Below are positions 1,334 through 46,149 of a DNA stretch of 64,000 nt, one piece after another. The DNA is from a bacterium (GTDB taxonomy: Bacteria > Patescibacteriota > Minisyncoccia > Phycocordibacterales > UBA2100). Within the stretch, counting starts at the first letter, position 1. Each line of letters opens with the position of its first letter. The position numbers and the translations under genes were made by a program. The stretch is taken from NCBI GenBank assembly GCA_030647655.1, contig JAUSJH010000006.1, forward strand, positions 3,737 to 67,736, read 5' to 3'. The notes under the pieces were generated by a model, which worked only from the letters and a program-made list of their open reading frames with translations, did no database searches and was not told the origin of the DNA.

Positions 1334-2188
1334 TTATGTACCCGTATGGACTTCTATTTTTCTTTCACCTCCCGGCGGACCCATGAGAACGCCAACGCGA
1401 TATTTCTTCTCCTTGGGGCGCACACGGCCGTCGGCAATCGACTCACCCGGATAGTACGGCAACTGTCCAATCGCACGGAAAACATTCTCAAAGATGTCGA
1501 ACCCGAATGTGCGCTCGTTCCAGATGTACAGGTCTAGGTAGTGAATGAGAAGAAGAACCAAAACAACAGCGCTCGAAATCGCGAGGGTGACGATATCGAA
1601 GAACAGGGTGCCGGTACGAAGCCCATACAACGAAAGTATGAAGAGCGCCGCGAGTATAAGTAGTATCGCCCACTGGAATCGAGAAAGTGTCCGAGCCCCA
1701 AGAACGGTAAGCTGCTGGCGGGCGATACTGATGTCGTGCATTATCCCCCGGATGATCTGATAGACCGGTAAAAGCTCGGGCTTTACCGGAAACGACCGCA
1801 CCGTCTCAACTATCGCCTGATACTCGGACGCTGTTGCTTCTGCATATTCGATAATCTCGAAGTCGAAATTCCGCCGCAGGTAGACATCAACGAGTCCGGA
1901 AAGTTTCTCGGCCAATGGTCTATCATAGGTAAGGACATTATCGTAGAGATTAATCCATCCGGCTGTTTCTGCTGAGAGAATATTTTTTACGCTGTTGTAG
2001 TCAGTCGTCGTTACGACAATGTAAAAGCCCGCGATAATGCCAAATAGAAATGCAATGACGGTCAGTACCGTGTTGCCAAGATCGGAAGAGATGAACGGAT
2101 GCGGGACAACAAAAAGCAGGAGGACGAACGCCGCAAAAGAAACCCAAAATATCCGCTGTGTCCTCATGCATCTTTCACTATACATCAA
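1334..2188 (-). CDS. hypothetical polytopic membrane protein
   Basis: 284-aa ORF with two pairs of hydrophobic helices (FAAFVLLLFVV, IAFLFGIIAGFYIVV, WAILLILAALFILSLYG, VTLAISSAVVLVLLLI); no family recognised. Confidence 0.45.
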   Translation of the reverse strand: MMYSERCMRTQRIFWVSFAAFVLLLFVVPHPFISSDLGNTVLTVIAFLFGIIAGFYIVVTTTDYNSVKNILSAETAGWINLYDNVLTYDRPLAEKLSGLVDVYLRRNFDFEIIEYAEATASEYQAIVETVRSFPVKPELLPVYQIIRGIMHDISIARQQLTVLGARTLSRFQWAILLILAALFILSLYGLRTGTLFFDIVTLAISSAVVLVLLLIHYLDLYIWNERTFGFDIFENVFRAIGQLPYYPGESIADGRVRPKEKKYRVGVLMGPPGGERKIEVHTGT

Positions 2189-2283: not shown

Positions 2284-3417
2284 CTAACGAATGACTTTCG
2301 CGACTGCCTTGGCAACGCGCTTGTCGAACATGTCGGGAACTATCCTCTCTGCAGTCGGCTTTTTCACGAGATTGGCAATCGCGCGCGCGGCTTTGATTTT
2401 CATCTCATCGGTAATTTTAGTTACGCGGTGGTCTAAGGCGCCGCGGAAAATGCCGGGAAAAGCGAGTGAGTTATTTATCTGATTCGGAAAATCAGAGCGC
2501 CCCGTGCCAACGATGAGTGCACCTCCCCTCTTTGCTTCGGGCGGCATTATTTCGGGCGTCGGATTCGCCATCGCAAATACGATAGCTTTCTTTGCCATGA
2601 GTTTAATATCCGCGGCTTTTACAAGATTCGGGCCCGATACTCCGAGCAGTACATCCGCATTTTTCAGAGCATCCTGCAATCCGCCTTTGACGCCCTTGGT
2701 ATTGAAAATCGCAAGTAGCCGCTTGTGCGGCTCGGGGCGGGCGCGATTAACGATACCTTTGCTGTCGAGCACGATGATGTTTTTTGCTCCCGCCACGTGC
2801 AGAAGCTTTGCCGTTGCAGTCCCCGCGGCTCCCGCGCCAAGTACTACAAATCGCGCGGTTGATATCTTTTTACCAACGATCTTGAGCGCGTTTATCATGC
2901 CGGCGAGTACGACCACCGCGGTGCCGGGCTGGTCATCATGCATGACGGGAATATCAAGTGCCTCGGCGACGCGACGTTCTATCTCGAAACATTTGGGCGA
3001 CGCGATGTCTTCGAGATTTATCCCACCGAACGCGGGTGCCACCCGTATGACCGTGTCAACAATTTCATCGGCATCTTGCGTGTCGAGTACGAGCGGTATC
3101 GCATCAACTCCGGCAAAGGTCTTGAAAAGTGCGCACTTTCCTTCCATCACAGGCAATGCTCCGAGTGCGCCGATGTTGCCAAGGCCCAAGACCGCCGAAC
3201 CGTCGGAGATGACGGCGACCATGCGGCCTTTCATCGTATATTCTCGGGCCTCTTTGGGATGCTTCGCCACATAAGTCGATACCGCCGCCACTCCGGGCGT
3301 GTAGACGAGCGCGAGGTCGGCGCGATTGCGCACCGGCGCAGCCGGCATGATGCGGATTTTCCCCCCGAGCTTTTTGTGTAGTGCGAGAGCTTGCTTTGCG
3401 ACGTCCTTTTTTGCCAT
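2284..3417 (-). CDS. NAD(P)-dependent malic enzyme (small type)
   Basis: Protein MAKKDVAKQALALHKKLGGKI...VYTPGVA...GLGNIGALGALPVMEGK...VVLGAGAAGTA... matches malic enzyme N-terminal and NAD-binding domains; start taken at the internal Met (MAKKD). Confidence 0.8.
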   Translation of the reverse strand: MAKKDVAKQALALHKKLGGKIRIMPAAPVRNRADLALVYTPGVAAVSTYVAKHPKEAREYTMKGRMVAVISDGSAVLGLGNIGALGALPVMEGKCALFKTFAGVDAIPLVLDTQDADEIVDTVIRVAPAFGGINLEDIASPKCFEIERRVAEALDIPVMHDDQPGTAVVVLAGMINALKIVGKKISTARFVVLGAGAAGTATAKLLHVAGAKNIIVLDSKGIVNRARPEPHKRLLAIFNTKGVKGGLQDALKNADVLLGVSGPNLVKAADIKLMAKKAIVFAMANPTPEIMPPEAKRGGALIVGTGRSDFPNQINNSLAFPGIFRGALDHRVTKITDEMKIKAARAIANLVKKPTAERIVPDMFDKRVAKAVAKVIR

Positions 3418-3440
3418 TCCCGCCAGTGTATACTTCTCGC

Positions 3441-4544
3441 ATGAGTGACACAATCACGATTAAAAAACCCTTTGATTCACACGTGCACCTGCGGCGCGGA
3501 GCGATGTTGCGGGCGGTCACGCCCATCACCGCTGAGAAATTTTATAGCGCAATCGTCATGCCTAATACCGAGCCGCCTATTGAGACGGTGGAGCAAGCAG
3601 TTGAATACAAAAAAGAAATTCTTGCCGCGCTAAAAAACCATCAAGGCGTCGCCTTGATGGTTTCCGCGTTCGAGCCGTTGATGACGTTGTATCTCACAAA
3701 GAAATTGACGCCTGCAGAAATTGAGAAAGGTGTGAGTAATGATGTTTGCAAGATATACGGAGTGAAGTCATACCCGTATGGTGCGACGACAAATTCGCAA
3801 TGGGGATTTCGAAGTATTTTGGAAGCAAAAGACGTACTCAAAAAGATGGAAGAGGTCGGCATGCCGCTTTTGCTCCACGGTGAAGTGCATCTGAATGAAA
3901 ACAACGAGGAAGAAGACCCCTATGACGGCGAGAAGTTATTTATTGCCGATGTACTCCCGCGACTTTTGGAAACATATCCCAAACTCAAAGTCTCGCTCGA
4001 ACACATGTCGACCTCTCAAGCAGTGGATTTCATGGAAAAGAATGGCAAAGACGGCCAGCTCGTCGCGACGGTGACGCCCACGCATCTCATGTATGACCGC
4101 CGGCAAGCATTTTCCGGCGGCTATCGCCCCCTCCTTCATATGAAGCCGCTTATCAAACGCCGCGAGCACAAAGAACGCGTGCGGGAGCTCGTGAAAAAAG
4201 GCCTGCCGTTCATTTCCGCTGGCACCGACAGTGCGCCGCATCCAGAATCGAAGAAGTTTTCCTCATGTTGCGTCTTCGGCGTCTTCAATTCCCCCGTCGC
4301 TGTCGAGCTCTACACGCAGGTTTTTGATGAGCTCGGGTGCCTCGACAAACTCGAGAATTTTATGTCCATGAACGGCCCGCGATTCTACGGCCTAGAGCCG
4401 AGCAGTGAAACAATAACCCTCGCCAAGAAAGATTGGCAGACGAGCGAGCCCGTCGTAACCGAAGAGGATGTGAAGGTATGGCCTATTTGTAATACGCAGC
4501 ACGGCCTCGGAAATGAGACGGTTCACTGGCAAGTGCAGGCGTAA
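3441..4544 (+). CDS. pyrC: dihydroorotase, class II (homodimeric type)
   Basis: MSDTITIKKPFDSHVHLRRGAMLRAVTP...IVMPNTEPP... aligns with E. coli PyrC (DxHxHLR, MPNL/TxPP); 367 aa from the internal Met. Confidence 0.8.
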   Translation: MSDTITIKKPFDSHVHLRRGAMLRAVTPITAEKFYSAIVMPNTEPPIETVEQAVEYKKEILAALKNHQGVALMVSAFEPLMTLYLTKKLTPAEIEKGVSNDVCKIYGVKSYPYGATTNSQWGFRSILEAKDVLKKMEEVGMPLLLHGEVHLNENNEEEDPYDGEKLFIADVLPRLLETYPKLKVSLEHMSTSQAVDFMEKNGKDGQLVATVTPTHLMYDRRQAFSGGYRPLLHMKPLIKRREHKERVRELVKKGLPFISAGTDSAPHPESKKFSSCCVFGVFNSPVAVELYTQVFDELGCLDKLENFMSMNGPRFYGLEPSSETITLAKKDWQTSEPVVTEEDVKVWPICNTQHGLGNETVHWQVQA

Positions 4545-14502: not shown

Positions 14503-15303
14503 GTGGGCAGGTATACTCTTCACATGAATATGCGTTCTATTTTGCAAATTGGTGGTGGAATTGTGCTCGGAATTTTAATCGGCGTTTTCCTAGTGGGCCG
14601 AACTACAGCGCCTGTCTTTAAGAGCGTGTCAATTGCCTCCCCCGCGGCGTCTGCAGTATCTACGAATGCGCCCACAGCGGCTGGCACTTACCCCGTCGTG
14701 AAAGTCGTCGATGGCGATACGCTCGCTATCCTGATGAATGGAAAAAGCGTAACACTGCGACTTATTGGGCTCGACACGCCGGAGACGGTAGACCCGCGCA
14801 AGCCCGTGCAGTGCTTCGGGAAAGAGGCGTCGGAGGAAGCGAAAGAGGTGCTCGCCGGCAAGACGGTTCGCCTAGAAATGGACCCGTCGCAGGGAGAGCT
14901 TGATAAATACGGTCGCACGCTCGCGTATGTGTTCCTGTCAGACGGAATGTCTTTCAACAAGTACATGATATCCGAGGGCTACGGGCACGAATATACTTAT
15001 AATCTGCCGTACAAATACCAGAGCGAATTCAAAGCGGCAGAAAAACAAGCGCGTGAGGAGAAAAAAGGATTGTGGGGGCTAGAACAATCGCAAAGCGATT
15101 GTTCGCCCGAACCTGTCTCGCCGAGCGAGACAGGTTTTAGGGCAGATGGTACCCATGATTGTTCCCGCAACACTTATAACTGCTCAAGCTTCAAAACGCA
15201 GTCGGAAGCCCAGCGGGTGTTCGACCTCTGCGGCGGCACTGCGAACGATGTCCACAAACTCGACAGCGATAAGGATGGCAGGGTGTGCGAAAGCCTGCCC
15301 TGA
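14503..15303 (+). CDS. secreted thermonuclease (SNase-like) with C-terminal Excalibur calcium-binding domain
   Basis: N-terminal TM/signal; VVDGDTL...RLIGLDTPE...GRTLAYVF nuclease motifs; C-terminal DSDKDGRVCE (Excalibur DxDxDGxxCE). Confidence 0.75.
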   Translation: MGRYTLHMNMRSILQIGGGIVLGILIGVFLVGRTTAPVFKSVSIASPAASAVSTNAPTAAGTYPVVKVVDGDTLAILMNGKSVTLRLIGLDTPETVDPRKPVQCFGKEASEEAKEVLAGKTVRLEMDPSQGELDKYGRTLAYVFLSDGMSFNKYMISEGYGHEYTYNLPYKYQSEFKAAEKQAREEKKGLWGLEQSQSDCSPEPVSPSETGFRADGTHDCSRNTYNCSSFKTQSEAQRVFDLCGGTANDVHKLDSDKDGRVCESLP

Positions 15304-15306
15304 CAT

Positions 15307-16602
15307 GTGTTTTTCTCGGTATACTTAGAACACATGCGCAATCCCGACCTTTCTGTTGCTGTTACTATTGCGACCGCAGTATTCATAAGCGTGGCGGTGT
15401 TTTGTTTGGTCCCGCGTTTTGTGGATGCGGCCGACCTTCCTGCAACAAATCCGGCCGCTTGCAACCAACTATTCGATCTGCCCCAAAATACAATGACGCG
15501 GCCTGCGGACAAGGCACTCATGACCCCGGAAACATGCGATGCTTACTTGTTTCTGCTTCAAAGATACGCCCCGTCGGCCGGCGGCTGTAGCGCACGATAC
15601 GTTCAAAGAACTGCCGGTATCACGAGTCTGAACCCGGATTTTGCCATTCGATTGACAAAAATGTTTCGCGCTGCACCCATGAACATTATGATAATTTCCG
15701 CATATAGGAATCGGCAAGCGCAACAATGCGCAAACCCGAGAGTGACCGACTCAAATCACTCAAAAGGTTTGGCTGTTGACCTTGGATGGGACCAGAAGAG
15801 TTGTAGCTCCTCGGCCTGCCAATGGGTGCTGGCGAACGGCGCTACATTCGGAGTCGGAATTCCTATGCGCTATGGGCCAGAATGGAATCATGTCCAACCG
15901 AGAGGATCCGTGCAGGGTGGGCTTGGTCCCGGGGCGGATGCTTCACAAACTTCTTCGCAACTTTCTGACGCTATTCGCCAAGCTCTCGGCATGCAGCCGC
16001 CTCCACCGCCTCCACCGCCTCCACCGCCTCCTCCTCCACCTCCGATGCAGCCGCAACCAATACTTCCCCCGCAAACCGCGCTCCCCGCACAGCCGACACT
16101 TCCTGCACAACCCACGCTCCCCGCCCAGCCAACGATATTTTCTGAGCAGACACCAATATCAAGTCTGCTTACAATGAATCCAATCGTGATAACACCAACG
16201 ACCACGCGTAGTACAACAACATCAGATACCGGCAACGGTGATTCTATATTCGACCTGATTGAGCAGTATGTAAGTCCAGTGAGCGACTTCATCATTATCG
16301 GCACGGCAACATCCATCTCGCTCAATCCGGATACTGGTGATGCTCTGGTACTTGTAGCGACACGACCGACCTCCACCGCGAATATATTCCCAACGTCTTC
16401 TTCGGTGAATGTGCCCAACACGTTCACGTCCCAAGACCTCGCCAAAAGTCCCATTTCTTCCTCTGTACTCCGACAAAATTCGCTCGTGCTGAAGGTGCTT
16501 GAAGTGATGAAAAATACCCTGCTCTACGCGCTTAACTACCTGAAGCCGTTCGGGGGGAGGACGCCCGGAACAGTACCGCCAGGCAGTGTGTACGCGGATT
16601 AG
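15307..16602 (+). CDS. membrane-anchored VanY/peptidase M15-like zinc hydrolase with polyproline linker and conserved C-terminal domain
   Basis: IISAYRNRQAQQ ... SNHSKGLAVDL matches SxYRxxxxQ...SxHxxGxAxD of M15B/VanY; 17 consecutive Pro; C-terminal 150 aa about 80% identical to the paralog at 16662..17903. Confidence 0.6.
   Translation: MFFSVYLEHMRNPDLSVAVTIATAVFISVAVFCLVPRFVDAADLPATNPAACNQLFDLPQNTMTRPADKALMTPETCDAYLFLLQRYAPSAGGCSARYVQRTAGITSLNPDFAIRLTKMFRAAPMNIMIISAYRNRQAQQCANPRVTDSNHSKGLAVDLGWDQKSCSSSACQWVLANGATFGVGIPMRYGPEWNHVQPRGSVQGGLGPGADASQTSSQLSDAIRQALGMQPPPPPPPPPPPPPPPPMQPQPILPPQTALPAQPTLPAQPTLPAQPTIFSEQTPISSLLTMNPIVITPTTTRSTTTSDTGNGDSIFDLIEQYVSPVSDFIIIGTATSISLNPDTGDALVLVATRPTSTANIFPTSSSVNVPNTFTSQDLAKSPISSSVLRQNSLVLKVLEVMKNTLLYALNYLKPFGGRTPGTVPPGSVYAD
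15997..16048 (+). repeat. (CCGCCTCCA)n short tandem repeat encoding polyproline
   Basis: Direct 9-bp repeats inside the CDS; a shorter analogous repeat lies at 17349..17387 in the paralog. Confidence 0.6.
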
Positions 16603-16661
16603 AGAAAGGTTTTGCTCAGGGTCCGTGTCGAGTCTGAGCGTTTTTTCTGTATACTTCGTCT

Positions 16662-17903
16662 ATGAGTTCGACACGCGCTGAGATCGTTCTAAGAGGCGTA
16701 GTCCTTTTTCTGTTCCTGTTCCTACTAACAACTCCTTTATGGTCACAGGCAGCACTCACACCATGCACCAACGGTCATATAGCAACTCCGCAAGACGTTG
16801 CCGCCGGATACCCAGCTGGCGAGATTGTGTGTCCTCAAGATTATCAAACGACTGGTGTAACGGCTGATAGTGGCGCAGCAAAGCAATATTTAAATACGCA
16901 GTGGTGCCGTGGCGGGCCGTGTACGAAAAATGGTTACGTTTCCAATGTCACGCAACTTGATCCTAAATTCGCTATTTGCGCCGCAAATTTCTTAGAAAAG
17001 TACAAACAAAGAGACCCATCAGTTTGCATACGATGCGCATACCGGAGTCCTGAAATGCAACAAGCAATGTGTGGCTCAGGCTCATCTGGTTGCGCAGCCG
17101 CGAACCAATCAAATCATCCAAAGGGTATCGCAGTTGACTTAGTGCCGAGAAATTTGGATGACATGCAAGCCGCCGTACGCTCATTTTCCGGACTGAGACA
17201 TTTGACCCTTGTGAACGACAAGTGGCATGTCGAGGCCAACAATACGGGTACTTGTGGATTTGGAACTAATGGGGCAAACTCGGGCCCACCATCCGAAAAC
17301 TCACAATCCTCCTCTCTTGCCAACGCCATCCGCCAAGCGCTCGGCATGCCGCCGCCTCCCCCGCCTCCCCCGCCCCCACCTCCGCCATTACAACAGCAAC
17401 CGCAGACACTTCCACAGTCAGCACAACCAACTATTCCATCAGAGTCCCCACAAATCCCGCCCATATCGAGTCTTATATCTTCCACCTCCACGCCGCCACT
17501 TGTATCAACGAACATAAACACCAACGCTAATACAAATACAAACACCGACGCCACCTCCACGTTTGATCTGATTGAGCAGTATGCAAACCCAGTGAGCGAC
17601 TTCATAACTATCGGTACGGCAACATCCATCTCGCTCAATCCGGATACGGGTGACGCCATAGCCCTTAATGCGACAAGGCCGACCTCCACGGCGACAGGGA
17701 CAATCCTGACATCTCTTTCCGTGAATGTGCCCAACACGTTCACGTCCCAAGACCTCGCCAAAAGTCCCATTTCTTCCTCCCTACTGGGACCAAATTCGCT
17801 TGTGCTGAAGGTGCTCGCAGTGATGAAAAACACCCTGATTTACGCGCTTAACTACCTGAAGCCGTTCGGGGGGCGCACAACATCGCCAATGTACAGCGAA
17901 TAA
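16662..17903 (+). CDS. membrane-anchored VanY/peptidase M15-like zinc hydrolase paralog with polyproline linker
   Basis: IRCAYRSPEMQQ ... SNHPKGIAVDL; PPPPPPPPPPPP linker; shared C-terminal domain (FDLIEQY..PVSDFI.IGTATSISLNPDTGDA...NYLKPFGGRT). Confidence 0.6.
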   Translation: MSSTRAEIVLRGVVLFLFLFLLTTPLWSQAALTPCTNGHIATPQDVAAGYPAGEIVCPQDYQTTGVTADSGAAKQYLNTQWCRGGPCTKNGYVSNVTQLDPKFAICAANFLEKYKQRDPSVCIRCAYRSPEMQQAMCGSGSSGCAAANQSNHPKGIAVDLVPRNLDDMQAAVRSFSGLRHLTLVNDKWHVEANNTGTCGFGTNGANSGPPSENSQSSSLANAIRQALGMPPPPPPPPPPPPPLQQQPQTLPQSAQPTIPSESPQIPPISSLISSTSTPPLVSTNINTNANTNTNTDATSTFDLIEQYANPVSDFITIGTATSISLNPDTGDAIALNATRPTSTATGTILTSLSVNVPNTFTSQDLAKSPISSSLLGPNSLVLKVLAVMKNTLIYALNYLKPFGGRTTSPMYSE

Positions 17904-19842: not shown

Positions 19843-20544
19843 TTATAGAATCACCTCTTGGTTCTTTCCGGTAGCACTCCGGCTGTCGTGATTGTTGTAA
19901 ATAAGCATCGTTTGCTCCTTTTCTTTTGTCACCATCTCTATTAACCGCTCTACCATGGCTTTGGGATCGGAATCAAAAACTATTTTCTCGTTGGGCCGAT
20001 TCGCGGCGTCTATAATGTGTTTCAATATTTCGTCGGTCTCCCATGTGCCTTCCAAAATGCCGATTGGCCGACGATCCTCGAAGGCAACCGCGAATTCATT
20101 CAAGGTTCCTATCCTTCCGCAGCCGACAATGATCGCATCCGATGAGCGCACCAAAAGCAGGTCGCGCCCCGAATAGCCAAAGCCGGTGTAGAGAACCACG
20201 TCCATGAAATCGAGAGGGAGTCGGTAGGTTTCCACGTGTTCGCGCTCGGTCGAGGCGGGAGAAAAACCGATGGAAAAGCCGCATTCGTCCTTAGCCCCCA
20301 TCGCGGCATACATAGGGAAACCGGTCGTGGCACCCGTGGTTATAATCCCGCCGTGTTTCGCGATCTCACGCCCGACTTCTTTTGCTTTTTCATACGCGTC
20401 TAAGCCACATGCCCCCGCCTCCGCCGCGCCCGAGACCCCGATCTTCACGACGCCATACCCATCAGGCAAACGGCAGAAATTCAGGGGTACTGCTGTGTGG
20501 TTGGGATGGAGAATTCTTTTTGCCATTAACTGAAATTGTAGCAT
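19843..20544 (-). CDS. TIGR00725/SLOG (LOG-like Rossmann fold) family protein
   Basis: GGIITTGATTGFPMYAAMGA and VGCGRIGTLNEFAVA motifs typical of the LOG/DprA-like SLOG clade. Confidence 0.5.
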   Translation of the reverse strand: MLQFQLMAKRILHPNHTAVPLNFCRLPDGYGVVKIGVSGAAEAGACGLDAYEKAKEVGREIAKHGGIITTGATTGFPMYAAMGAKDECGFSIGFSPASTEREHVETYRLPLDFMDVVLYTGFGYSGRDLLLVRSSDAIIVGCGRIGTLNEFAVAFEDRRPIGILEGTWETDEILKHIIDAANRPNEKIVFDSDPKAMVERLIEMVTKEKEQTMLIYNNHDSRSATGKNQEVIL

Positions 20545-22860: not shown

Positions 22861-24633
22861 TTAGTAGCAATACGAGGAGCAGTATCCTATCCCGAACATA
22901 GCTGTTGCTTGTCCTGCAGTTGCTTCGTTACCACTGAATAGTATTTGATAATTCTGAAAGTTTCCTCCTGCAAGTTCACTTGGTATCGTCCATGTGAAGC
23001 TGCCGCCTTGTAATCCTGAAGAATATGCGGTGCCAAGCGAACGGTCGATTGAGCCATATGGGATGCCGCCCAATAAGCGTAAAGAGTAACTCTTTACCCC
23101 CACATCAGAGCCTGTCCACGTAATACGGTATGTTTGACCGGCATACAGTTGCGCGCCAGGAGTCGGGAATGTGATTGTAACTGGCTGCACCAGATTGCTC
23201 AAAACTTTTACACGGACCGAATTGCTCGTCCCGTACTGATTCACGACGTACAGGTCATAGCTCTGCCCGACAATAAGCGACGAGGGGACATCCGCATTCA
23301 CCCGGGTCTCGCTCGTCCACGTCACGGTCGCCGGAATACCACTGAAGAACACTTTGGTTGAATCGACCGTAGCAAGATTATTTCCGTAAATCGACACTTC
23401 GCCACCCGCATCTACCTCCAAATTGCCGGCAGCTTTTGCGCTCGTTGAGATGATGACAGGATCGGTACTTGGAGCATTGACGACGGTGAAATAGCCATTG
23501 CTTTCATCGCGAACATTGCCCGTAGTGAGCGCGACCTTGTACTGCCCGCCCGGTAAGAGCTCACCTGTATTTGGACAGACGTAGCCCGGCCCCATATAGA
23601 ACCCGTACGTCCCGGCAGACACCGCAACAGTGCCGATGTTGCACGAGATTGTCGGGGACACAAGAAATACCCCGGCCGATCCTACGACTCCATGCGCTAT
23701 CCAATTCACTCGCAGATCTACATCCTTACCGCTACCGAAGACGAGGGATTCTCCGCCGTTCGGATACGTAATTGTGATAGACGAAGATGTGTCGACGACG
23801 TAATCAGATGTTTCGCCGACATCATAGCAGTAGCGTCCTTGCTCCCCCCTACAGCCGGCCGAATCGCTCCCCGTCCACAAATTCCCTTGTGAGGGCGCGA
23901 CGTCATTATCATAGTCGAGCGCGGAACTTCTGTTTTCGAGACTTGCACCGAGTTCATATCCTCTTCCCCCTCCGAGTTGATCATATGAATATGAGTTGTT
24001 ATCAGAGACATCTATCGGAACGGAGGCAATGTAGTCAGGCGCGAGAAAAGAGGTTGTCGGAGGATACATCCCCTTATCATCGTAGTAGAGCTCCAGCGCG
24101 AGTTGAAGCTGCTTGATATCGGCGATTCGACGCGCATCACGACCTTTTGCCCGCGCCTCGGCGGTATTCTCTGGAATTTCCATGCCGTAACAGAGCCGTG
24201 CCATCGCGGTGCGGGTGCGCGAGCCGACAAAGCCGTAGCCCGTTGAGTCCGGGTCGCCGGAAGATACGACGCCGTGCGCGGCTTGCCAGCGCTGCACCGC
24301 GCGCATCGTTGCAGGGCCGAAGTAGCCAGTGATGCGCGCTTCGGGATAGATTGAGGGGCCATACGAAGCGAGAAATTGTTGGAGTTTGGTAACCTCCCCG
24401 TTGGTGTCTGCATCGGTGTCGTCAACTGAAAGACTATTTGAAAGAGAGACGCACGCTGAAGTACTGGCGGGGGTGGTATTTGCGGGGACACCGAGTTGGG
24501 ACCTTAGAGCGGTGATTTGTGTTAGCAAACTCTGGACTTGAGCCTGCAAGTCGCTCAACGTATCAGAGGAAGCGAAGAGTGGTGACGCGAGAAAGAGAAG
24601 TCCGAGGCCGCCGAAGGCGATTTTTTTAAGCAT
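22861..24633 (-). CDS. secreted coiled-coil / peptidoglycan-binding-domain protein with pseudopilin (GspG-like) domain and beta-rich C-terminal region
   Basis: Signal peptide MLKKIAFGGLGLLFLASPLFA, heptad region LSDLQAQVQSLLTQITALRSQL, PG_binding_1-like VTKLQQFLASYGPSIYP...YFGPATMRAVQRWQ, then RDARRIADIKQLQLALELYYDDKGMYP (type IV pilin/pseudopilin globular-domain signature) without the N-terminal pilin TM helix. Confidence 0.6.
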   Translation of the reverse strand: MLKKIAFGGLGLLFLASPLFASSDTLSDLQAQVQSLLTQITALRSQLGVPANTTPASTSACVSLSNSLSVDDTDADTNGEVTKLQQFLASYGPSIYPEARITGYFGPATMRAVQRWQAAHGVVSSGDPDSTGYGFVGSRTRTAMARLCYGMEIPENTAEARAKGRDARRIADIKQLQLALELYYDDKGMYPPTTSFLAPDYIASVPIDVSDNNSYSYDQLGGGRGYELGASLENRSSALDYDNDVAPSQGNLWTGSDSAGCRGEQGRYCYDVGETSDYVVDTSSSITITYPNGGESLVFGSGKDVDLRVNWIAHGVVGSAGVFLVSPTISCNIGTVAVSAGTYGFYMGPGYVCPNTGELLPGGQYKVALTTGNVRDESNGYFTVVNAPSTDPVIISTSAKAAGNLEVDAGGEVSIYGNNLATVDSTKVFFSGIPATVTWTSETRVNADVPSSLIVGQSYDLYVVNQYGTSNSVRVKVLSNLVQPVTITFPTPGAQLYAGQTYRITWTGSDVGVKSYSLRLLGGIPYGSIDRSLGTAYSSGLQGGSFTWTIPSELAGGNFQNYQILFSGNEATAGQATAMFGIGYCSSYCY

Positions 24634-24742
24634 GATTTTGACCTCTATGGTAATACCGTAAGGGTAACACGTACTGCACTATTGATGCAGCACCACAGGC
24701 TACCGGTAGTCGTCGGGAGGTTAAACCTCCAGAGTTCACTTT

Positions 24743-25915
24743 TTAGTTGGAAATCGTAAACACCCCACTTTCGGCGAGAGTGTCCATTCCTCTGCTGATG
24801 CGAATCTTGTATCTGCCCGGTACAACAGTATTTTCCTTGTTGATAGTACCAGCACCGAGATAGTTGAGCGTTATGCTGGCAGTCCATCCACTGAATTCTG
24901 CTTGCGAACCGTTGTTTAAGCTGCCAACTATTCCTGCTTGAGAACCATCTTCCCGTATAAGATTCAGAACTACCTTATCGCCCTCAGGCCATGTAGCGAT
25001 GACAGGTTCACTCAGCTTAATTATATGCGCCTCGCCGGTCTTCCAACGGTCGCCGGGTATCGGCGAAAGAACGGTAATGCCGTTTTGAGAACTCTCCGTA
25101 ACCGTAAAGGAAACGGAATTACTCCACTTCGACCATGGTTTTACGGAAATCTCGTAGACGCCTGGAGACACAGAAAAATATGATGCGCATGGAAGTCCTG
25201 AATAAGAAGTGTCCTGCTTACAGAACGATGACTGTATTGTTGTCACGATAGTAGTATCGTCGCTACCAGTCCTGTCCCCGTACATAACACCGCTAGAGTA
25301 ATCCGGAGGGTTAAATTCCGTTGCAATACGAGCATTCAGATCACCTTCAAAACCGCGCAGATTTTTGCCTTTGATAGTAATCTTTGTGCCGATAGGACCG
25401 CTCGAAGGAGTTACGCTGTAAATGACGGGGTCTAAAGTGCTATTGCTGGTCGAACCTGAGCCGCATGATTCTGTGATCTTTGCCCGTGTCATCGGACCGA
25501 CGCCGCTTTTGGGTGTTACGAAACCCATGCCGTGGGCTTTTTGCCAACGCATGACCGCCTGCGCGGTGAGATTTCCATAATAGCCAGTGATAGGACCCGT
25601 GTAAACCCCCTGATCTGTGAGAAACTGTTGCAGACGTGACACTTCATCATCGTGCAGTGAGTCGGTAGAACCTATGATTAAATTTCGCGTAATCATCGGG
25701 CACGTCCCCGCACCCGTCGGATTAGACGGGGCAGTTTTCATGGCGGCCATCTGCGCTTTCAACTGGGTGATTTGTGCGAGCAACCCTTGAATTTGCGATT
25801 GTAGTTCCTCAATCGGATTCGTCGTGGCAAGTGCGGGTGTGGCAAGAAAAAGAATTCCCAAAACCGGAAGCGCGAGTTTTTTAAGCATGATGTTTGCCTT
25901 AAGGGTAATGCACAA
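24743..25915 (-). CDS. secreted coiled-coil / peptidoglycan-binding-domain protein
   Basis: Signal MLKKLALPVLGILFLATPALA, IEELQSQIQGLLAQITQLKAQMAAM, VSRLQQFLTDQGVYTGPITGYYGNLTAQAVMRWQ PGBD-like; paralog of 22861..24633. Confidence 0.6.
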   Translation of the reverse strand: MCITLKANIMLKKLALPVLGILFLATPALATTNPIEELQSQIQGLLAQITQLKAQMAAMKTAPSNPTGAGTCPMITRNLIIGSTDSLHDDEVSRLQQFLTDQGVYTGPITGYYGNLTAQAVMRWQKAHGMGFVTPKSGVGPMTRAKITESCGSGSTSNSTLDPVIYSVTPSSGPIGTKITIKGKNLRGFEGDLNARIATEFNPPDYSSGVMYGDRTGSDDTTIVTTIQSSFCKQDTSYSGLPCASYFSVSPGVYEISVKPWSKWSNSVSFTVTESSQNGITVLSPIPGDRWKTGEAHIIKLSEPVIATWPEGDKVVLNLIREDGSQAGIVGSLNNGSQAEFSGWTASITLNYLGAGTINKENTVVPGRYKIRISRGMDTLAESGVFTISN

Positions 25916-25940: not shown

Positions 25941-28766
25941 CTATTGATACAACGATGCGGGCAATTCGGGTTCGAGTGGGTTTGGCGCGGGCTTTTTGCC
26001 GTAGGCGGCGTCGAATTTGCGGCGAATGTCTGCTTCTACCTCTTCTCTATCTTTCCCATACATTTTGTATGAAAGTTCTTTCATCGTGTCTATCTTGCTG
26101 TAATCCATGTGAGGAAGATCGGCAGTTTGGATAGTGAATGGTCGCGCAGGGACGCCATTGACGAGAAGCGCCAAAACCGCGGTTCTGTTCGGCAGATTCT
26201 CAAGATCCTGCTGCGTGAATATCGGCGTAAATTGTTTCTCCAAAAACTCGGCATCTTGCGTGCCTACACGGAACGACGCTTTGGTGCCCACATTTCCGAT
26301 GACCGCGTCGCGGATGTCTTCTTCGAGCTGCGCAATAAATTGATGCGCTATCGTGAGTGAGAGCTTGTATTTGCGGGCCTCGGAGAGAATGGTCGCGATT
26401 GATGGTGTAGCGAAGTTCTGGAACTCGTCGATATAGAGATAAAAGACGGGCAAAAGGTCGCCCCTCGTGTCAACACGCGAGAATGCCGCCTGCAGAAATT
26501 TTGAGACGAGAATAAGACCGAGGAGCGAGGTGTTTCGATCGCCCAAGCGACCTTTCGAGAGATTGGCGAGAAAAATCTTTTTCTTATCCATTATCTCGCG
26601 GAAATTGAACGCGGATTTTTCCTGGCTAACGATAGGCCGCATGATGTCGTTGGTGAGAAAGACGTCGAACTTGCTGGTGATGTAGGGCGCCACGTTCTCA
26701 AGGCTGGGGTCACCTTGCGCCTGTTCGGCAATTTTGCGCCAGAATTGCACGATTATTGGGTTATTGCAGTGGCTAAGCTTTAAATTGCGGAACGCGGTAT
26801 CGGCGAATACACGCGGTATCTCGACGAAAGTACTTCCTGTGTCCGGATCCTCGACGACGAGCTGCACCGCGTTGCGGTAGTATTGCTCGAACATCGGGCC
26901 GAAGGCCTCCGGCACGTCGGCGTAGAGTTTTCTGAAAATGCCATACACTTCGTCCACCACGAATGTCTTCATTTCCGGCTTCGAGCGGTCGTACTCGAGC
27001 ATGTTGAGGCCCATCGGCCGTGCTGTGTATGCAGGGTCAAAATAGATGACGTCTTTCATGCGCTCGGGCGGGATACACGCGAGCACATCCTCGATGTCGT
27101 TGCCGTGCGGATCGATGAAGGCAACTCCTTCGCCGTTCTTTATATCCTGAATAATCATATTCTTGATGAGCCCTGTCTTTCCGGTACCTGTCTGTCCGAT
27201 GACATACGCATGGCGGAGGCGATCCGACGCCCCGAATCGCACCGGCGTCTCGTCGGCGCCGTACTTGTTGATACCGATGGTGATGCCGTCGGCCGGAGTC
27301 TCGACTGGCGCAGGCGCTTGTTTGGCGAAGCTGCGCTTCAACTCGCGTGAGGTCGTGAGGCGCTCGGCGGTGAAATGGAATATCGAGGTCACTTCCGCTA
27401 GCGAGAGCGGCATCGATATCCCGTGGTCGAACTCTCGGTATGTAAAGTCGCGCAGAAAGTTGGCAAGTCCCCAACTTCCGACTTCTTTGAAGATTAAATG
27501 ATTGCCTTTTGCATCATCGTACTGGTTGAAAGGCGCCTCCAGATTACTCAAAAGTTCTTCCGCACGGGCTTTTGTCGGCGCGGACGTGACGAGGCGGATG
27601 GAGACGGGTGCTATGCGCGTTTTTACCTTCTTAGTTACCTCTTCGGTCACCACCTGATCGCTCGAGCGGCGGAATTGTTTTTCCACTTCCATCTCATACT
27701 CCTTCGCCATGAATATTTGTTTTGCCATTGCATAGACCGCTTCTCCAATTTCTGTTTCAGGCACTTTGATGGCCTTGCGGAAATTTTTCCCCTTCTCAAG
27801 TTCCCGAATAATCTTCTTATAGTGATGATTGTACCGATCGCCTTCGGTCGAGACGGTAATCTGTAGCGCCGCCCCCTCCCCGTGTTTTGCTATTTTCGCG
27901 AACGCCGCAAGCAAGACGTTCATCGGATCGTGCTCAAAAAGCTCGGGGGTTTTGAGGGGAAGCGAGGGATGGTCGGCAAGAGTCGCATAGGCGGCAGCAT
28001 GCTCGCCTTCGTAGTTGAAAATGTTGTAATCACCGCGAGATTCGGACATACGCGCGTTGGGAAATACGGATGATATAAGGCGCTCCGCAAGGATCTTTTT
28101 TGCCCGCGGCACGGCGAGGTACAAAAATGCTTCTTCGCTCCCCTCTTGCACTGCGATCTCGAGTGAGAATCCTTCGTGCTTGTCGATGAGGGAGGTGAGG
28201 CCTGCGTAAAGCTGTTCGGAAGATGAGAGGAGCTGTTCGAGCTTGTGCTGTTGATTCTCCTGTTTGTCACCCTCACCAAATGCCTGCGGCTGTATCTCGA
28301 AGAGAACCATGTTGAGTGCGCGGCGAACTTTCTCGGGCGCCTTCATACCGTGGTCCGGCAAGCCTTCTGCGATGTAGCGCACCAAGGCGCGATGCACGTC
28401 GTCCTCGAGGTGCGGATTCTTCATGCGTGCCGCGACCGAAAGTGCGTTCCTTATACCGCTCTGCTGGACCAGTCGCAGTATCTCGTCCACCTGTTTATCG
28501 TGCGTCTCCGGCTCAAGTTTCAAGACCGTGCGCACAATGTCGTGCTCGGCCATAACAACCGTTTCGTGGAGGACGGTCGCCGCAGGAGTGTCCGCATAGG
28601 CGGCAACTTCACGGCGGGCGATACGGTCTTTTTCAAAACGGTTGTCCGGCGCTTCCATCTCGGCCTCTTTCTCGCGCACCCGCTCGCGCAAATAGGCAAG
28701 CTCCTCTTCAGGTGATTTGAATTTCTCTAGAGCCGCATTACGCGGCTTCTCCATCATGGGAGGCAT
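25941..28766 (-). CDS. large P-loop NTPase, VirD4/TraG/TraD (type IV coupling protein)-like ATPase domain with about 500-aa N-terminal extension
   Basis: Walker A GQTGTGKT followed by AFIDPHG / YFDPAY (DP motifs of T4SS-DNA_transf family), Walker B-like YIDEFQNF, RKYKLSLTIAHQFIAQL (TraG-like Q motif); 941 aa, no N-terminal TM helices. Confidence 0.55.
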   Translation of the reverse strand: MPPMMEKPRNAALEKFKSPEEELAYLRERVREKEAEMEAPDNRFEKDRIARREVAAYADTPAATVLHETVVMAEHDIVRTVLKLEPETHDKQVDEILRLVQQSGIRNALSVAARMKNPHLEDDVHRALVRYIAEGLPDHGMKAPEKVRRALNMVLFEIQPQAFGEGDKQENQQHKLEQLLSSSEQLYAGLTSLIDKHEGFSLEIAVQEGSEEAFLYLAVPRAKKILAERLISSVFPNARMSESRGDYNIFNYEGEHAAAYATLADHPSLPLKTPELFEHDPMNVLLAAFAKIAKHGEGAALQITVSTEGDRYNHHYKKIIRELEKGKNFRKAIKVPETEIGEAVYAMAKQIFMAKEYEMEVEKQFRRSSDQVVTEEVTKKVKTRIAPVSIRLVTSAPTKARAEELLSNLEAPFNQYDDAKGNHLIFKEVGSWGLANFLRDFTYREFDHGISMPLSLAEVTSIFHFTAERLTTSRELKRSFAKQAPAPVETPADGITIGINKYGADETPVRFGASDRLRHAYVIGQTGTGKTGLIKNMIIQDIKNGEGVAFIDPHGNDIEDVLACIPPERMKDVIYFDPAYTARPMGLNMLEYDRSKPEMKTFVVDEVYGIFRKLYADVPEAFGPMFEQYYRNAVQLVVEDPDTGSTFVEIPRVFADTAFRNLKLSHCNNPIIVQFWRKIAEQAQGDPSLENVAPYITSKFDVFLTNDIMRPIVSQEKSAFNFREIMDKKKIFLANLSKGRLGDRNTSLLGLILVSKFLQAAFSRVDTRGDLLPVFYLYIDEFQNFATPSIATILSEARKYKLSLTIAHQFIAQLEEDIRDAVIGNVGTKASFRVGTQDAEFLEKQFTPIFTQQDLENLPNRTAVLALLVNGVPARPFTIQTADLPHMDYSKIDTMKELSYKMYGKDREEVEADIRRKFDAAYGKKPAPNPLEPELPASLYQ

Positions 28767-29179: not shown

Positions 29180-30460
29180 TCAAGAAAGGGACTTTGCCCC
29201 GATGTCGCGGCGGAAATGCATGCCTTCGAAATGGATTTTGCCGACCGCTTCGTAGGCACGGTCGAGCGCCTGCTTGAGCGTGCCGCCGACCGCGGAAACC
29301 CCAAGTACTCTGCCGCCGTTTGTATACAAGGTTGAACCTCGTAAAATAGTGCCTGCATGAAATACGACGACACCTTCCACCTTTTCGGCTTCTTCAATTC
29401 CCGTTATCGGGAACCCCTTCTGATACGCGTCCGGATAACCGCCGGATGCCAAGACGATATTTGCCGCAAAGCCGCGATGCCATTCCACCGATTTTTTTAC
29501 CACATCTACCGTGCTATCGACACACGCGTCGAGAAGGTCGAGAAGGTCGGTTTTGAGAAGACGCATGTATACCTGACATTCAGGATCGCCAAAACGTGCG
29601 TTGTATTCCAAAACCTTGAGACCGTCAAGCGTCACTTTGAGACCGGGATACAGAAGTCCCTGGAACTGTATGCTGCGTTTTTTGAGCGCTTCGAAGGTCG
29701 GGATAACGACCGCGCTGTCGATGCCGGTCATCACTTGTGAGGTGACCCACGGCACTGGAGCGATAGCGCCCATCCCGCCGGTATTTTTGCCTTCGTCTCC
29801 ATCAAGCGCGCGCTTGTGATCTTGGGAAGAAGGAAACAGTACGTGCGTAATCCCGTCTGTAAGAGCGTGTATGGATATCTCGGGACCATCGAGATATTCC
29901 TCTATCACAACCTCGTTACCGGCATCTTTGTGTATTTTCTCAATCATTATCTCGGTAATCGCATGCTCGGCCTCTTCGAAACTTCTGCAGATGTACACTC
30001 CCTTCCCTAGCGCAAGCCCACTCGCTTTTATGACGATTGGAAAGCCATGCGTGCGCACATGCGCGAGCGCCGTGTGCGGCTCGCTAAAGAGCGCAAACTC
30101 GGCGGTCGGGATTTTTGCCTCCTGCATCAATTGTTTTGAAAAAGCTTTCGAGCCTTCGATTTGTGCTGCTTCTTTGCTTGGGCCCCAGATGCGCAGTCCG
30201 TGCGACTTGAACACATCAACGATGCCGCCGACCAGCGGATCATCGGGACCGACAACGGTGAGGCCGATTCTCTTCTCTTCCGCGAATCTAGCCAACTTTT
30301 CGAATTCCATCACACTGATATCTACGTTCTCGGCGAGCATTCCTGTACCGCCATTCCCCGGCGCCACGTAGAGTTTGCCAACGCGCGGTGACTGCTTTAA
30401 TTTCCACGCGAGCGCGTGTTCTCTCCCCCCGCTGCCGATTATGAGAACGTCAGTTGCCAT
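29180..30460 (-). CDS. purD: phosphoribosylamine--glycine ligase
   Basis: MATDVLIIGSGGREHALAWKL... and ATP-grasp region; full length. Confidence 0.85.
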   Translation of the reverse strand: MATDVLIIGSGGREHALAWKLKQSPRVGKLYVAPGNGGTGMLAENVDISVMEFEKLARFAEEKRIGLTVVGPDDPLVGGIVDVFKSHGLRIWGPSKEAAQIEGSKAFSKQLMQEAKIPTAEFALFSEPHTALAHVRTHGFPIVIKASGLALGKGVYICRSFEEAEHAITEIMIEKIHKDAGNEVVIEEYLDGPEISIHALTDGITHVLFPSSQDHKRALDGDEGKNTGGMGAIAPVPWVTSQVMTGIDSAVVIPTFEALKKRSIQFQGLLYPGLKVTLDGLKVLEYNARFGDPECQVYMRLLKTDLLDLLDACVDSTVDVVKKSVEWHRGFAANIVLASGGYPDAYQKGFPITGIEEAEKVEGVVVFHAGTILRGSTLYTNGGRVLGVSAVGGTLKQALDRAYEAVGKIHFEGMHFRRDIGAKSLS

Positions 30461-30998
30461 GCGCTTCAATATACCGCATCGCATCCTTCGGAGTATCTGC
30501 AAAATATATTAACTCATCCAACGGGAGCGGAATCTTTGCACTTCTCAGGAACCCTTCTTTTTCCATTTTCTCAAGTTGCTGTTTTAATCCTTCGTAGAAG
30601 CTACCGGTACTAAGAATGACGATGGGCTTTTTGTGAACACCGTGTTTCTTAAGTTCGAGTACTTCGGTCACTTCGTCCAGAGTCCCGATGCCTCCGACCA
30701 TCGCCACGATGGCATCCGCGCGTTCCAGCATCGCCTCTCGACGTTCTCCGAGAGTCTTGGCAATAATCATTTCATCAGCATTCCTTCGTGTGTGTTCTTT
30801 GAGAAATTCAACAGATATACCAACTATTTTTCCGCCCGCGTCTTGTACGCCAGAAGCAATCACCTTCATTATTCCCTTGTCTGAACCGCCCCAAACAAGC
30901 GTGTGTCCATGCTCACCGAGAAGTTTCGCGAACTCCGCCGCTGGCTTTGTATATTTCTCCGCAATCTCGCTCGCCGAGCAGAAAACGCAAATGTTCAT
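30450..30998 (-). CDS. LOG family protein (cytokinin riboside 5'-monophosphate phosphoribohydrolase-like, TIGR00730)
   Basis: VFCSAS, VWGGSDKGIMK (GGxxGxMG), MVGGIGTLDEV (PGGxGTxEE) motifs. Confidence 0.7.
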   Translation of the reverse strand: MNICVFCSASEIAEKYTKPAAEFAKLLGEHGHTLVWGGSDKGIMKVIASGVQDAGGKIVGISVEFLKEHTRRNADEMIIAKTLGERREAMLERADAIVAMVGGIGTLDEVTEVLELKKHGVHKKPIVILSTGSFYEGLKQQLEKMEKEGFLRSAKIPLPLDELIYFADTPKDAMRYIEAHGN

Positions 30999-44697: not shown

Positions 44698-46149
44698 CTA
44701 AAGCGTGGGCTCGAGTGGCGACGCATGATTTCGTCGGCGGACCCAGAGCCATGAGACTACAAGAAGCGCCAGAAGCGCAATCACGCCAGTAAGCTTCAGG
44801 AGACCTGACGGTGAGAGGATGTCGCTTAAGGAGAACGTTTGCGATTTCAACTCTTTCGGAAGGCAGGTAGACGGAGCAATCTGATTGCAATCGTACGTCA
44901 GCAGAGACTCATCGACGAGCGTGCCGCCCTGATAGAGCTTCGCGGTGAGCTCGAACGTGTCGTAATTGCCTTTCGGGGTGAATTTCTCCGCGACGCCCAT
45001 CATGTCACCAGTCACGTCACCCGTATACGTATATTCGTGAATAAGTTTGCCCGAAGTGTCCGAGAGATGGAGGACGAGCTTGCCATTGGGTACAGACTCG
45101 CTCTCGCCGCTGTTGTGCAGGCACGAGAAGAGCGTCGTTTCCTCACCTTTGCGCAACGGAAATGCGGTCACTCCCGGAAAATTGATGCGCGTGCGGTCGA
45201 TTCCTGTGCGCGCGAAGCGCACGTTGATGATGGACTGCGTGTTGCCCCAGCCCACCCAGCCGATGAGTAAGTACACCGGATAGCGCGCATCGGTCGCGGT
45301 ATACGAGACTGTCGCGCTCCCGCCAGCGGGGACGGATACTTGCGAATCGCTTTGCGCTACCAGGTTGCCCGGCTGACCCGCATCCCATGTGTAAAGCTTC
45401 CACGACACGGGCACAAGTACTTTCTGCGCCGTGGTATTGCGTATGACCGCGCTTATCGGCACGGCCGCTACTTTGTCTGTGCGCGGCGGGAACGCGGCGA
45501 AGTAGTATGTGTTGCCCGCTACCGTGACCGCGTTCTTATCGAACGATACGAGTTTCTGCTGTTCGCCAGACACATGGAAGCTCGCTGTGTTACCGACAAC
45601 ATCGTCAGTGAACGAGAGGCCGAGCAGATTGTATTTCTTGGATGTGGTGAAGAAGGTGGCGATTTTGTAGTCGCCCGTAGATGCATAACTCGGAATATCC
45701 CACGTGAACGCGATGGGCAATGAGCCCTGCGCCGGTAGATTGATACCACTACGCACGAAGAATTGGTCAACGACATCGGGACCGTTCGGGTCTTTGGCGC
45801 CGGAATTATCCTTCAGTCGGAATACCTTGATATAGAGTGCGCCGTCCACGATTGGGTAGGGATTGTCGTTCTTGATGGCGCCGGTAAAGGTGATGGGCGT
45901 GCCCGAGACCGCGGTCGTGACACTTGAACTTACGTTCACTTGTACCGAACCGAAACGGTAGTACGCGAAGCAATCGGTAGTGCCAGCCGGAAACACGACC
46001 GTGGTGGTAGAAGGGACCGCATCAGCGTCGTCGGGCGCAAGCGTATCTTGTGCGAGTGCGAGCGGCGCGCCTGAGCTGGCAAGGAGAAGCACGGCACTGA
46101 TAAATGCGGTTCCGCGCCGAAGACTAACGATGAGAGAGTTCATAGACAT
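44698..46149 (-). CDS. secreted surface protein with C-terminal TM anchor, hypothetical
   Basis: Signal peptide, beta-rich 440 aa, C-terminal GVIALLALLVVSWLWVRRRN helix plus basic tail. Confidence 0.5.
   Translation of the reverse strand: MSMNSLIVSLRRGTAFISAVLLLASSGAPLALAQDTLAPDDADAVPSTTTVVFPAGTTDCFAYYRFGSVQVNVSSSVTTAVSGTPITFTGAIKNDNPYPIVDGALYIKVFRLKDNSGAKDPNGPDVVDQFFVRSGINLPAQGSLPIAFTWDIPSYASTGDYKIATFFTTSKKYNLLGLSFTDDVVGNTASFHVSGEQQKLVSFDKNAVTVAGNTYYFAAFPPRTDKVAAVPISAVIRNTTAQKVLVPVSWKLYTWDAGQPGNLVAQSDSQVSVPAGGSATVSYTATDARYPVYLLIGWVGWGNTQSIINVRFARTGIDRTRINFPGVTAFPLRKGEETTLFSCLHNSGESESVPNGKLVLHLSDTSGKLIHEYTYTGDVTGDMMGVAEKFTPKGNYDTFELTAKLYQGGTLVDESLLTYDCNQIAPSTCLPKELKSQTFSLSDILSPSGLLKLTGVIALLALLVVSWLWVRRRNHASPLEPTL

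Follow-up and report, generated by a model that had tools for sequence, protein, structure and literature searches.

The 64,000-nucleotide stretch of contig JAUSJH010000006.1 (assembly GCA_030647655.1, positions 3,737 to 67,736, from a patescibacterium; the whole stretch is hereafter designated the window) encodes four proteins that share a peptidoglycan-binding domain (PG_binding_1; hereafter designated PGB), and raises the question of whose wall these proteins grip, that of the cell producing them or that of a host. The window has a G+C content of ~52% and some 70 genes; among them are those of the S10-to-SecY ribosomal block and those for EF-Tu and SmpB. The four genes all lie on the minus strand: gene A (22861..24633), an open reading frame (ORF) of 590 residues; gene B (24743..25888), an ORF of 381 residues counted from the ATG at 25888; gene C (1..1235), an ORF with the C-terminus lost at the window start; and gene D (62326..64000), an ORF with the N-terminus beyond the window end. 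An earlier note on this DNA had regarded them as a diversifying family of cell-wall-anchored or wall-targeting surface proteins and as candidates for host cell-wall attachment. The reading that we somewhat favour is that they are Sec-exported, disulfide-bonded, non-enzymatic proteins built like beads on a string, which would be clipped onto the producer's own wall and turn their variable domains outward.

In a hidden Markov model (HMM) search, all four genes exceeded the curated gathering score of PF01471 (PG_binding_1; 23 bits), with 40.8 (A), 41.9 (B), 30.2 (C), and 26.1 bits (D). An HMM of the four N-terminal modules matched A–D only in the six-frame translation of the window, giving no fifth module copy, in agreement with the four paralogues counted previously. 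The multiple alignment of the four modules contained 20 invariant columns, which were mostly those of the PGB core (LQ.FL, G(Y/F)(Y/F)G..T..AV..(W/L)Q, and VG..T) and the two flanking Cys residues; the N-terminal likeness thus extends beyond low-complexity coiled-coil sequence, and the original observation stands. The beta-rich C-terminal domains are as diverse as the earlier note described, and several of them exceeded the Pfam gathering cut-offs (TIG, 20.9; PKD, 23.5; Kre9_KNH, 24.6 bits): TIG in A (24.2 bits) and B (34.9 bits), Kre9_KNH (PF10342) in A (39.8 bits), and PKD repeats in C (31.4 bits) and D (85.4 bits). The gene A protein is identical to an NCBI entry named 'MAG: peptidoglycan-binding protein', and the gene B protein is also deposited under that name. 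Relatives occur in metagenome-assembled genomes (MAGs) of Kaiserbacteria, Adlerbacteria, Nomurabacteria, Colwellbacteria, Paceibacterota, and Minisyncoccia, the nearest being from Kaiserbacteria and Paceibacterota, as expected for the organism of the candidate phyla radiation (CPR) type that had been surmised.

Signal peptides, read by eye from the sequence, were recognized in A, B, and C, the three genes for which they had been claimed, each with a K/R-containing n-region, a hydrophobic core of 14–16 residues, and a cleavage site (LFA↓S, ALA↓T, and ANA↓A, respectively). That of A (24568..24633, residues 1–22, MLKKIAFGGLGLLFLASPLFA↓S) is of the Sec/signal peptidase I type without a lipobox; those of B and C are at 25826..25888 and 1173..1235. 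For gene B, the ATG at 25888 is a likelier start than the listed TTG at 25915 (frame 24743..25915), because the ATG is preceded by an AAGG Shine–Dalgarno-like site. After cleavage by signal peptidase, the mature N-terminus would be a Q-rich heptad helix of ~22 residues (A, 24493..24564, residues 24–47; B, 25736..25816, residues 25–51 in the AlphaFold2 (AF2) model; C, 1098..1166, as part of the family module), followed by the three-helix bundle of PG_binding_1. In 31 diverse family members, the alignment columns 5, 8, 12, 15, 19, 22, and 26 were occupied by L, I, V, M, or F at 72–100%, with the 3-4-3-4 spacing of a/d positions and with Q and A between the hydrophobic columns, making up three heptads; together with the AF2 helix of B, this periodicity bears out the coiled coil of three to four heptads proposed previously. 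The PDB matches of the family profile include, for its helix portion, the designed coiled coil 5mj3. A low-complexity S/T/P linker separates the helix from the PGB domain and its flanking Cys residues (A, 24190..24453, Cys61 and Cys148, with the Pfam match at residues 78–130; B, 25463..25702, Cys63 and Cys142; C, 801..1049, Cys63 and Cys145; D, 63664..63912, Cys30 and Cys112, preceded by a Cys-rich stretch). Both Cys residues are invariant in A–D and at least 90% conserved in the larger alignments A3 and A4, and they presumably close the three-helix bundle by a disulfide bond. The profile of the module matches the PGB domains of the wall enzymes 1lbu, 5nm7, 4lpq, 6tci, and 3bkh in the PDB; its top match, the designed propeller Tako8, was set aside as an artefact of summed sub-threshold repeats. 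In the AF2 model of B, the three PGB helices (residues 82–92, 106–118, and 132–141) have a predicted local distance difference test (pLDDT) score of about 87–96. A has 8 Cys residues, B has 4, and D has 14; these even numbers, paired per domain, agree with a location outside the cytoplasm. A regular-expression search of A–D found neither LPXTG nor a lipobox, and the family proteins A–D have no C-terminal membrane segment, A ending with ...GYCSSYCY and B with ...GVFTISN. Presumably, the helix oligomerizes and clusters two or three PGB domains for avidity, and the clustered unit would then clip the protein non-covalently to the peptidoglycan of the producer.

The helix and PGB domain (hereafter designated the helix–PGB unit) behave as a portable cassette, as indicated by their co-occurrence and varied positions. 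Among 190 modules in 200 homologues, the helix region was present in 152 and both Cys residues in 131; the module started within the first 40 residues in 130, and a couple of dozen others were internal or C-terminal. Its partners include an FKBP prolyl isomerase (P0015 and P0042), a cupredoxin (P0029, P0177, and P0187), and an S11 DD-peptidase (P0072). A helix–PGB profile run against 1.84 billion representative proteins retrieved 35,352 matches at E ≤ 1e-3, falling to 13,066 at E ≤ 1e-10 and to 1,234 at E ≤ 1e-30; multiple PGB copies are frequent among them. In the search for homologues, most matches cover the N-terminal ~25% of the query alone, with identities of 50–75%, and the helix–PGB unit appears from these comparisons to be the best-conserved part of the proteins. 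We favour own-wall anchoring, and regard the unit as probably a clip onto the producer's own wall, because it is a portable cassette, because it is the most conserved part rather than the most variable one, and because it carries an FKBP, a cupredoxin, and a DD-peptidase, which are needed at the surface of the producer. In addition, the proteins have no second anchor, and a sole anchor bound to the host would lose the protein from the producer. By textbook knowledge, methanogenic archaea lack murein. It is on such hosts that, according to the only expression study (Kuroda et al., mBio 2024, PMC10936435), proteins with a PGB domain (PGBD), immunoglobulin (Ig)-like, and PKD domains are among the top-expressed genes of the attached Paceibacteria, which likewise favours anchoring to the producer's wall. 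So does the ability of Parcubacteria to make peptidoglycan themselves, its synthesis being within their core genome (PMC4508563).

Four of these arguments (the missing second anchor, the conservation of the PGB unit, its FKBP, cupredoxin, and DD-peptidase partners, and the hosts without murein) also speak against host-wall adhesins, in which the PGB domain would bind a bacterial host's peptidoglycan and the remainder of the protein would stay with the symbiont, as proposed in the earlier note and, for highly expressed PGBD proteins of Paceibacteria, in PMC10936435. We consider this explanation rather unlikely, and gripping the host wall by means of the PGB domain is accordingly not the best-supported role; of the two roles left open at the outset, wall anchoring is retained, as own-wall anchoring, and PGB-mediated attachment to a host is not favoured. 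Several points nevertheless weigh on the side of host-wall adhesins and against own-wall anchoring. The PGB domain is a genuine PF01471 domain, one genome contains four divergent subtypes of it, and between A and its orthologue in a Kaiserbacteria MAG (L020) the PGB domains are 33% identical versus 55–75% elsewhere, indicating that the PGB domain itself has been swapped; the coexisting subtypes could reflect different wall chemotypes, and such a swap could equally be a retargeting to them. PG_binding_1 cannot discriminate own from foreign murein, and its binding here is predicted. The oligomerization would have to be brought about by a helix of three heptads. The authors of PMC10936435 read the PGB domain as a host-attachment device, and the hosts of Kaiserbacteria may be bacteria with accessible murein. 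On balance, the results refine rather than overturn current ideas, and argue against the PGB domain as the binder of the host wall; host adhesion through the distal domains is plausible.

According to own-wall anchoring, the Ig-like, PKD, and TIG domains, together with a pilin head grafted into A, would point outward and form stalks and adhesive or structural surfaces. The product of gene A consists, in order, of the signal peptide, the helix, the PGB domain between its two Cys residues, a type IV pilin head (23812..24159, residues ~159–274), a beta-rich domain without an assigned family (23458..23766, residues ~290–392, 55% identical in the L020 orthologue), an IPT/TIG Ig-like domain (23194..23451, residues ~395–480, with Pfam TIG at 408–473), a Kre9/KNH-like Ig domain (22909..23181, residues ~485–575, with PF10342 at 490–571), and a CSSYC tail; its eight Cys residues form pairs, one pair per domain. 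Residues 290–392 of A and 265–381 of B were also considered as Kre9/KNH-like Ig domains, and this assignment was rejected, since no Pfam match was obtained at E ≤ 10 and the BLAST similarity to the C-terminal domain of A was marginal only.

The earlier note overlooked that residues ~159–274 of A make up an entire type IV pilin head of the kind found in Patescibacteria. The segment runs from AEARAKGRDARRIADIKQLQLALELYYDDKGMYP to GCRGEQGRYCYDV and includes a C-terminal loop between Cys261 and Cys269, and its profile retrieved 2,641 homologues. The best 120 of these 2,641 matches were almost all Patescibacteria prepilins of ~150 residues with PF07963 (N_methyl), with identities of 43–58% (mostly 45–57%), query coverage mostly of 86% (59–88%), and E-values of 1e-41 to 1e-32. 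In four fetched prepilins, the region equivalent to the A head begins past the hydrophobic helix alpha1-N (G↓FTLIELLVVIAIIGILSSVVLASLNS) and ends at or near the C-terminus of the pilin; three of these prepilins also have the Cys pair of the A head inside the equivalent region. Independent but weaker support is provided by the PDB sequence matches, seven of seven being GspG/EpsG, and by the AF2 model of the head (pLDDT 79), a long helix on a small sheet, for which the top six Foldseek matches were type IV pilins with weak E-values.

The product of gene A is nevertheless not a pilin, because it lacks both the class III leader and alpha1-N: its leader is of the Sec type, and the pilin homology begins beyond the hydrophobic alpha1-N helix, at ...ARxKGRDARR. 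The class III leader motif G↓F(T/S)LIE (PF07963) was absent from the six-frame translation of the whole window, so that the window contains no prepilin. A pilin head without alpha1-N cannot join a pilus filament, as established in pilin biology. Set against the major type IV pilins of Patescibacteria (~150 residues, PF07963), residues ~159–274 of A match the whole pilin beyond alpha1-N, up to its C-terminal GRYCYDV and with the Cys pair included. The leader of A, however, is a Sec signal peptide and not one of class III (G↓FTLIE), alpha1-N is lacking, and the head is embedded between the PGB domain and Ig domains; with this architecture, A cannot be a filament subunit. The fusion is rare: 3 of the 136 family members in the genome loci carry it, as do 18 of the 200 collected homologues, a set biased towards relatives of A. 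With this chimera, the presumably wall-anchored proteins are connected to type IV pili, which drive host binding in Saccharibacteria (PMC9894109, PMC11623550).

Gene B carries, after its PGB domain, a TIG domain (25100..25429, residues 154–263, Pfam) and a C-terminal beta domain without a Pfam match (24746..25021, residues ~290–381). In its AF2 model, confidence is high for the helix, for the three-helix PGB domain (pLDDT >90), and for TIG, and low pLDDT values are confined to the beta domain at the C-terminus; the overall predicted template modelling (pTM) score is 0.46, and a low overall score with confident single domains points to a beads-on-a-string layout. Foldseek with this model retrieved tandem Ig-like stalks of adhesins, including the invasin InvD, biofilm-associated protein, and GhpA. 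C and D carry PKD domains instead, as repeats in C (3..758) and as four domains in D (62329..63657), both recognized by Pfam. The orthologues of D (37–39% identity) possess the signal peptide, the helix, and a mini-domain with four Cys residues ahead of the PGB domain. This 4-Cys module, C.(M/Q)EAKICPDGTAVGR.G.NC.F..CP, separates the helix from the PGB domain in D and in three of four inspected orthologues (window, 63913..63999, minus strand, where the last part of the module alone is seen; L039, 10935..12917; L078, 10323..12452; L015, 4496..7246), and is not found in L076.

For the conserved C type, a structural role in an S-layer-like coat is worth considering. In many genomes, the first family member to follow the malic-enzyme gene is an orthologue of C with 70–72% identity, and the related proteins described in PMC10936435 are among the most highly expressed genes. 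By analogy with SLH-anchored S-layer proteins, an N-terminal wall anchor followed by Ig/PKD repeats could tether the subunits of a coat. That the conserved members as a whole are wall-tethered subunits of such an envelope layer, and not adhesins, is an explanation that we consider unlikely: lattice formation is unsupported, the low pTM score of B indicates flexible beads on a string, and the other members vary strongly in copy number and domain content.

Under own-wall anchoring, exchange of the distal domains among the genes of two conserved genomic slots would make the surface repertoire differ by lineage. In species-representative genomes, 34 of 78 loci contained two to five family genes on the same strand, nearly all in tandem, and the comparison of loci thus confirmed the copy-number variation between related genomes that had been anticipated. 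In slot 1, the gene order is purD, a 940-aa TraG/VirD4-like ATPase, one or two PGB genes, NDK, and RNase J. Its contents differ: the A type is alone in L001, the B type is alone in L004 and L005, and L002 has a different member together with extra genes. The pair of B followed by A is found in the window and in L020, and L019 also has two family genes. The ATPase that marks this slot as the upstream neighbour is, in the window, a P-loop protein of 941 aa (25941..28766, minus strand) with Pfam TraG-D_C and TrwB; it lacks an N-terminal membrane segment, and DUF8128 is found in its orthologues. Two genes of the LOG/SLOG-cluster-4 ('lysine decarboxylase-like') type, 30450..30998 and 19843..20544 (minus strand), flank the slot-1 block and are kept in related loci. 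Slot 2 is situated downstream of the gene for malic enzyme and, in about 40 loci, contains between one and four members; C occupies it in the window, following the malic-enzyme gene (2284..3453) and a bestrophin-like gene (1334..2188). Exact-sequence look-ups with the bestrophin-like gene and with EF-Tu, aimed at the flanks of the contig, gave no match, and protein A was indexed on a single Logan contig of 2.7 kb. As a separate observation on the 5' leaders of slot 1, the 12-mer TTACCCTTA[CA]GG occurs only twice in the window (24656..24667 and 25897..25908, minus strand), 22 and 8 nt ahead of the ATG of A and B, respectively, and both proteins start with ATGCTTAAAAAA; its statistics are marginal, as two matches were obtained in 6 of 100 shuffles. 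The counts from a promoter and terminator scan were not above those of shuffled controls.

A and B are 44% identical, limited to the first ~122 residues, and the other pairs in the window are 31–55% identical over the module. The L020 orthologues are 56% (A, full length) and 44% (B) identical. The paralogues of the window are thus old rather than recent duplicates, and a recent tandem duplication of A and B is ruled out by the limited identity together with the preservation of the pair in a distant genome. Per-domain comparisons revealed a mosaic. Outside the PGB domain, A and its L020 orthologue share 68% identity in the pilin head, 55% in the beta domain, 65% in TIG, and 75% in Kre9/KNH; relative to P0005 and P0006, the PGB domain is 84–85% identical and everything after it is unrelated; relative to P0003 (slot 1 of L001), the PGB domain, pilin head, and TIG are 64–68% identical and the other two domains are absent. 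B and its L020 orthologue share 67% identity in the PGB domain and 61% in the C-terminal domain, with TIG replaced, and the TIG domain of B recurs with 86% identity in P0089, a protein that differs in its other parts. As these mosaic identities show, the family diversifies by exchanging whole domains in conserved slots and not by local duplication and divergence. The diversification suggested in the earlier note is therefore retained, but not its origin in the tandem pair.

A still weaker explanation, that the pilin-head protein A docks or caps type IV pili or works with the TraG/VirD4-like ATPase as an accessory of a wall-spanning machine, is circumstantial and highly improbable: A has a full pilin head, pili serve host binding in Saccharibacteria as noted above, and the slot beside the ATPase holds a family member in 10 of 10 slot-1 loci examined, but synteny extends over the entire stretch between SecY and RNase J, leaving the adjacency without a specific signal, the ATPase and the PGB gene are separated by an oxidoreductase gene in one genome (L002, L003, and L006, the same contig), slot 1 holds members free of the pilin head in several genomes, the head is as rare as given above, and a head without alpha1-N does not enter the filament. 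Functional coupling to the ATPase was for the same reasons, block-wide synteny and the intervening gene, set aside as undemonstrated.

Own-wall anchoring can be extended to a broader proposal, which we put forward only tentatively and hold to be improbable as a whole. The heptad helix and the disulfide-bracketed PGB domain would be a general, position-independent wall-sorting cassette of Paceibacteria, a counterpart of LPXTG, LysM, or SLH on which much of the exoproteome is mounted; the ATPase–NDK and malic-enzyme slots would be recombination hot-spots shuffling distal domains and partner specificity; and A would display the cell's own pilin head on a short wall-anchored stalk. If so, the head of A might act as a pilus-independent, short-range copy of the binding surface of the pilus, locking the contact after pilus retraction.

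The closest known proteins are the PGBD/Ig/PKD proteins of Ca. Yanofskyibacterium, Microsyncoccus, and Minisyncoccus (PMC10936435), which likewise belong to the class Paceibacteria, are predicted to be extracellular, and combine PGB, Ig-like, and PKD domains; the helix–PGB module is also present in a Minisyncoccia MAG (L043). The likeness is one of domain vocabulary and description, and the report consists, in the parts concerned, of expression data and AlphaFold models; its passages, which read the PGB domain as host-binding, contain no helix–Cys cassette, genomic slots, domain swapping, or pilin-head fusion. A homologous three-helix bundle is found in the PG_binding_1 wall enzymes, such as the Zn DD-carboxypeptidase of Streptomyces albus (1LBU), gp144 of phage phiKZ (3BKH), SleB (6TCI), and an L,D-transpeptidase (4LPQ). 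There, however, the domain targets a catalytic hydrolase or transpeptidase, whereas A–D are devoid of a catalytic domain, and their PGB domain follows a heptad helix, is flanked by two Cys residues, and is combined with Ig-like, PKD, or pilin-head partners. More distantly, the family may be likened to the LysM, SLH, CWB2, and GW module proteins of monoderms (for example, InlB and S-layer proteins), which combine a conserved wall-binding module with variable displayed domains in several paralogues per genome; the anchor fold is different, and the anchor here is usually N-terminal, beside a coiled-coil helix. Braun lipoprotein (Lpp) and OmpA/Pal-type tethers offer a similar analogy, in that a short coiled coil or oligomer with peptidoglycan attachment tethers an envelope component, but the present family would have neither a lipid anchor nor a covalent link, and has an unrelated fold and a monoderm-type envelope.

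The literature search found no description of the cassette of a helix and a Cys-bracketed PGB domain, the two slots, the domain mosaicism, or the PGB–pilin-head chimera. The family itself is common in the lineage and already annotated as 'peptidoglycan-binding protein', and PGBD/Ig/PKD proteins have been proposed as attachment factors in PMC10936435; gene A is an unusual variant of a family that is otherwise unsurprising to a specialist. How CPR bacteria build their surface and attach to partners is largely obscure outside Saccharibacteria, and a family this abundant (thousands of clusters) bears on both. The helix–PGB cassette could serve as a handle for cell-surface pull-down or labelling, and the two slots with variable content could mark host range or strain.

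Further loci in the window are of note. Two tandem secreted paralogues on the plus strand (15307..16602 and 16662..17903; 431 and 413 aa) share an N-terminal domain that contains Cys and the motif SNH-x-KG-x-AVDL, 11–16 consecutive prolines, and a well-conserved C-terminal part ending with ...LKVL.VMKNTL.YALNYLKPFGGRT. Neither had a Pfam match, and the one tested against the PDB (15307..16602) had no sequence match; an M15/VanY-type peptidase, considered for 15307..17903 from the SNH-x-KG-x-AVDL motif, was thus unsupported by either search. Immediately ahead of them, 14503..15303 (plus strand) encodes a nuclease of the staphylococcal type, either membrane-anchored or secreted, that carries an Excalibur Ca-binding domain at its C-terminus and may serve nucleotide scavenging. 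Three consecutive large secreted or membrane proteins (44698..46149, 46151..47809, and 48338..49732, minus strand; 483, 552, and 464 aa) without a Pfam match are located inside the ribosomal-protein region, the last of them containing three Cys-rich tandem repeats of ~40 aa (CTG.LPSNAT.CTGDTNPAQDLRWLSVTRCTSERKCQYT). At 55481..57780 (minus strand), two genes overlap, one of the YcaO cyclodehydratase family (520 aa) and one of the nitroreductase family (252 aa), a pairing typical of the maturation of azol(in)e ribosomally synthesized and post-translationally modified peptides. Between this cluster and rpsJ are a MazE/MazF (PemK) toxin–antitoxin pair (58427..58998, minus strand) and then a weak YoeB-like ORF (59244..59495). 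Finally, 53798..55480 (plus strand) encodes a protein of 560 aa, in which an N-terminal phosphoribosyltransferase-like region, scoring below the Pfam cut-off, is fused to a PQQ/BamB-like beta-propeller.

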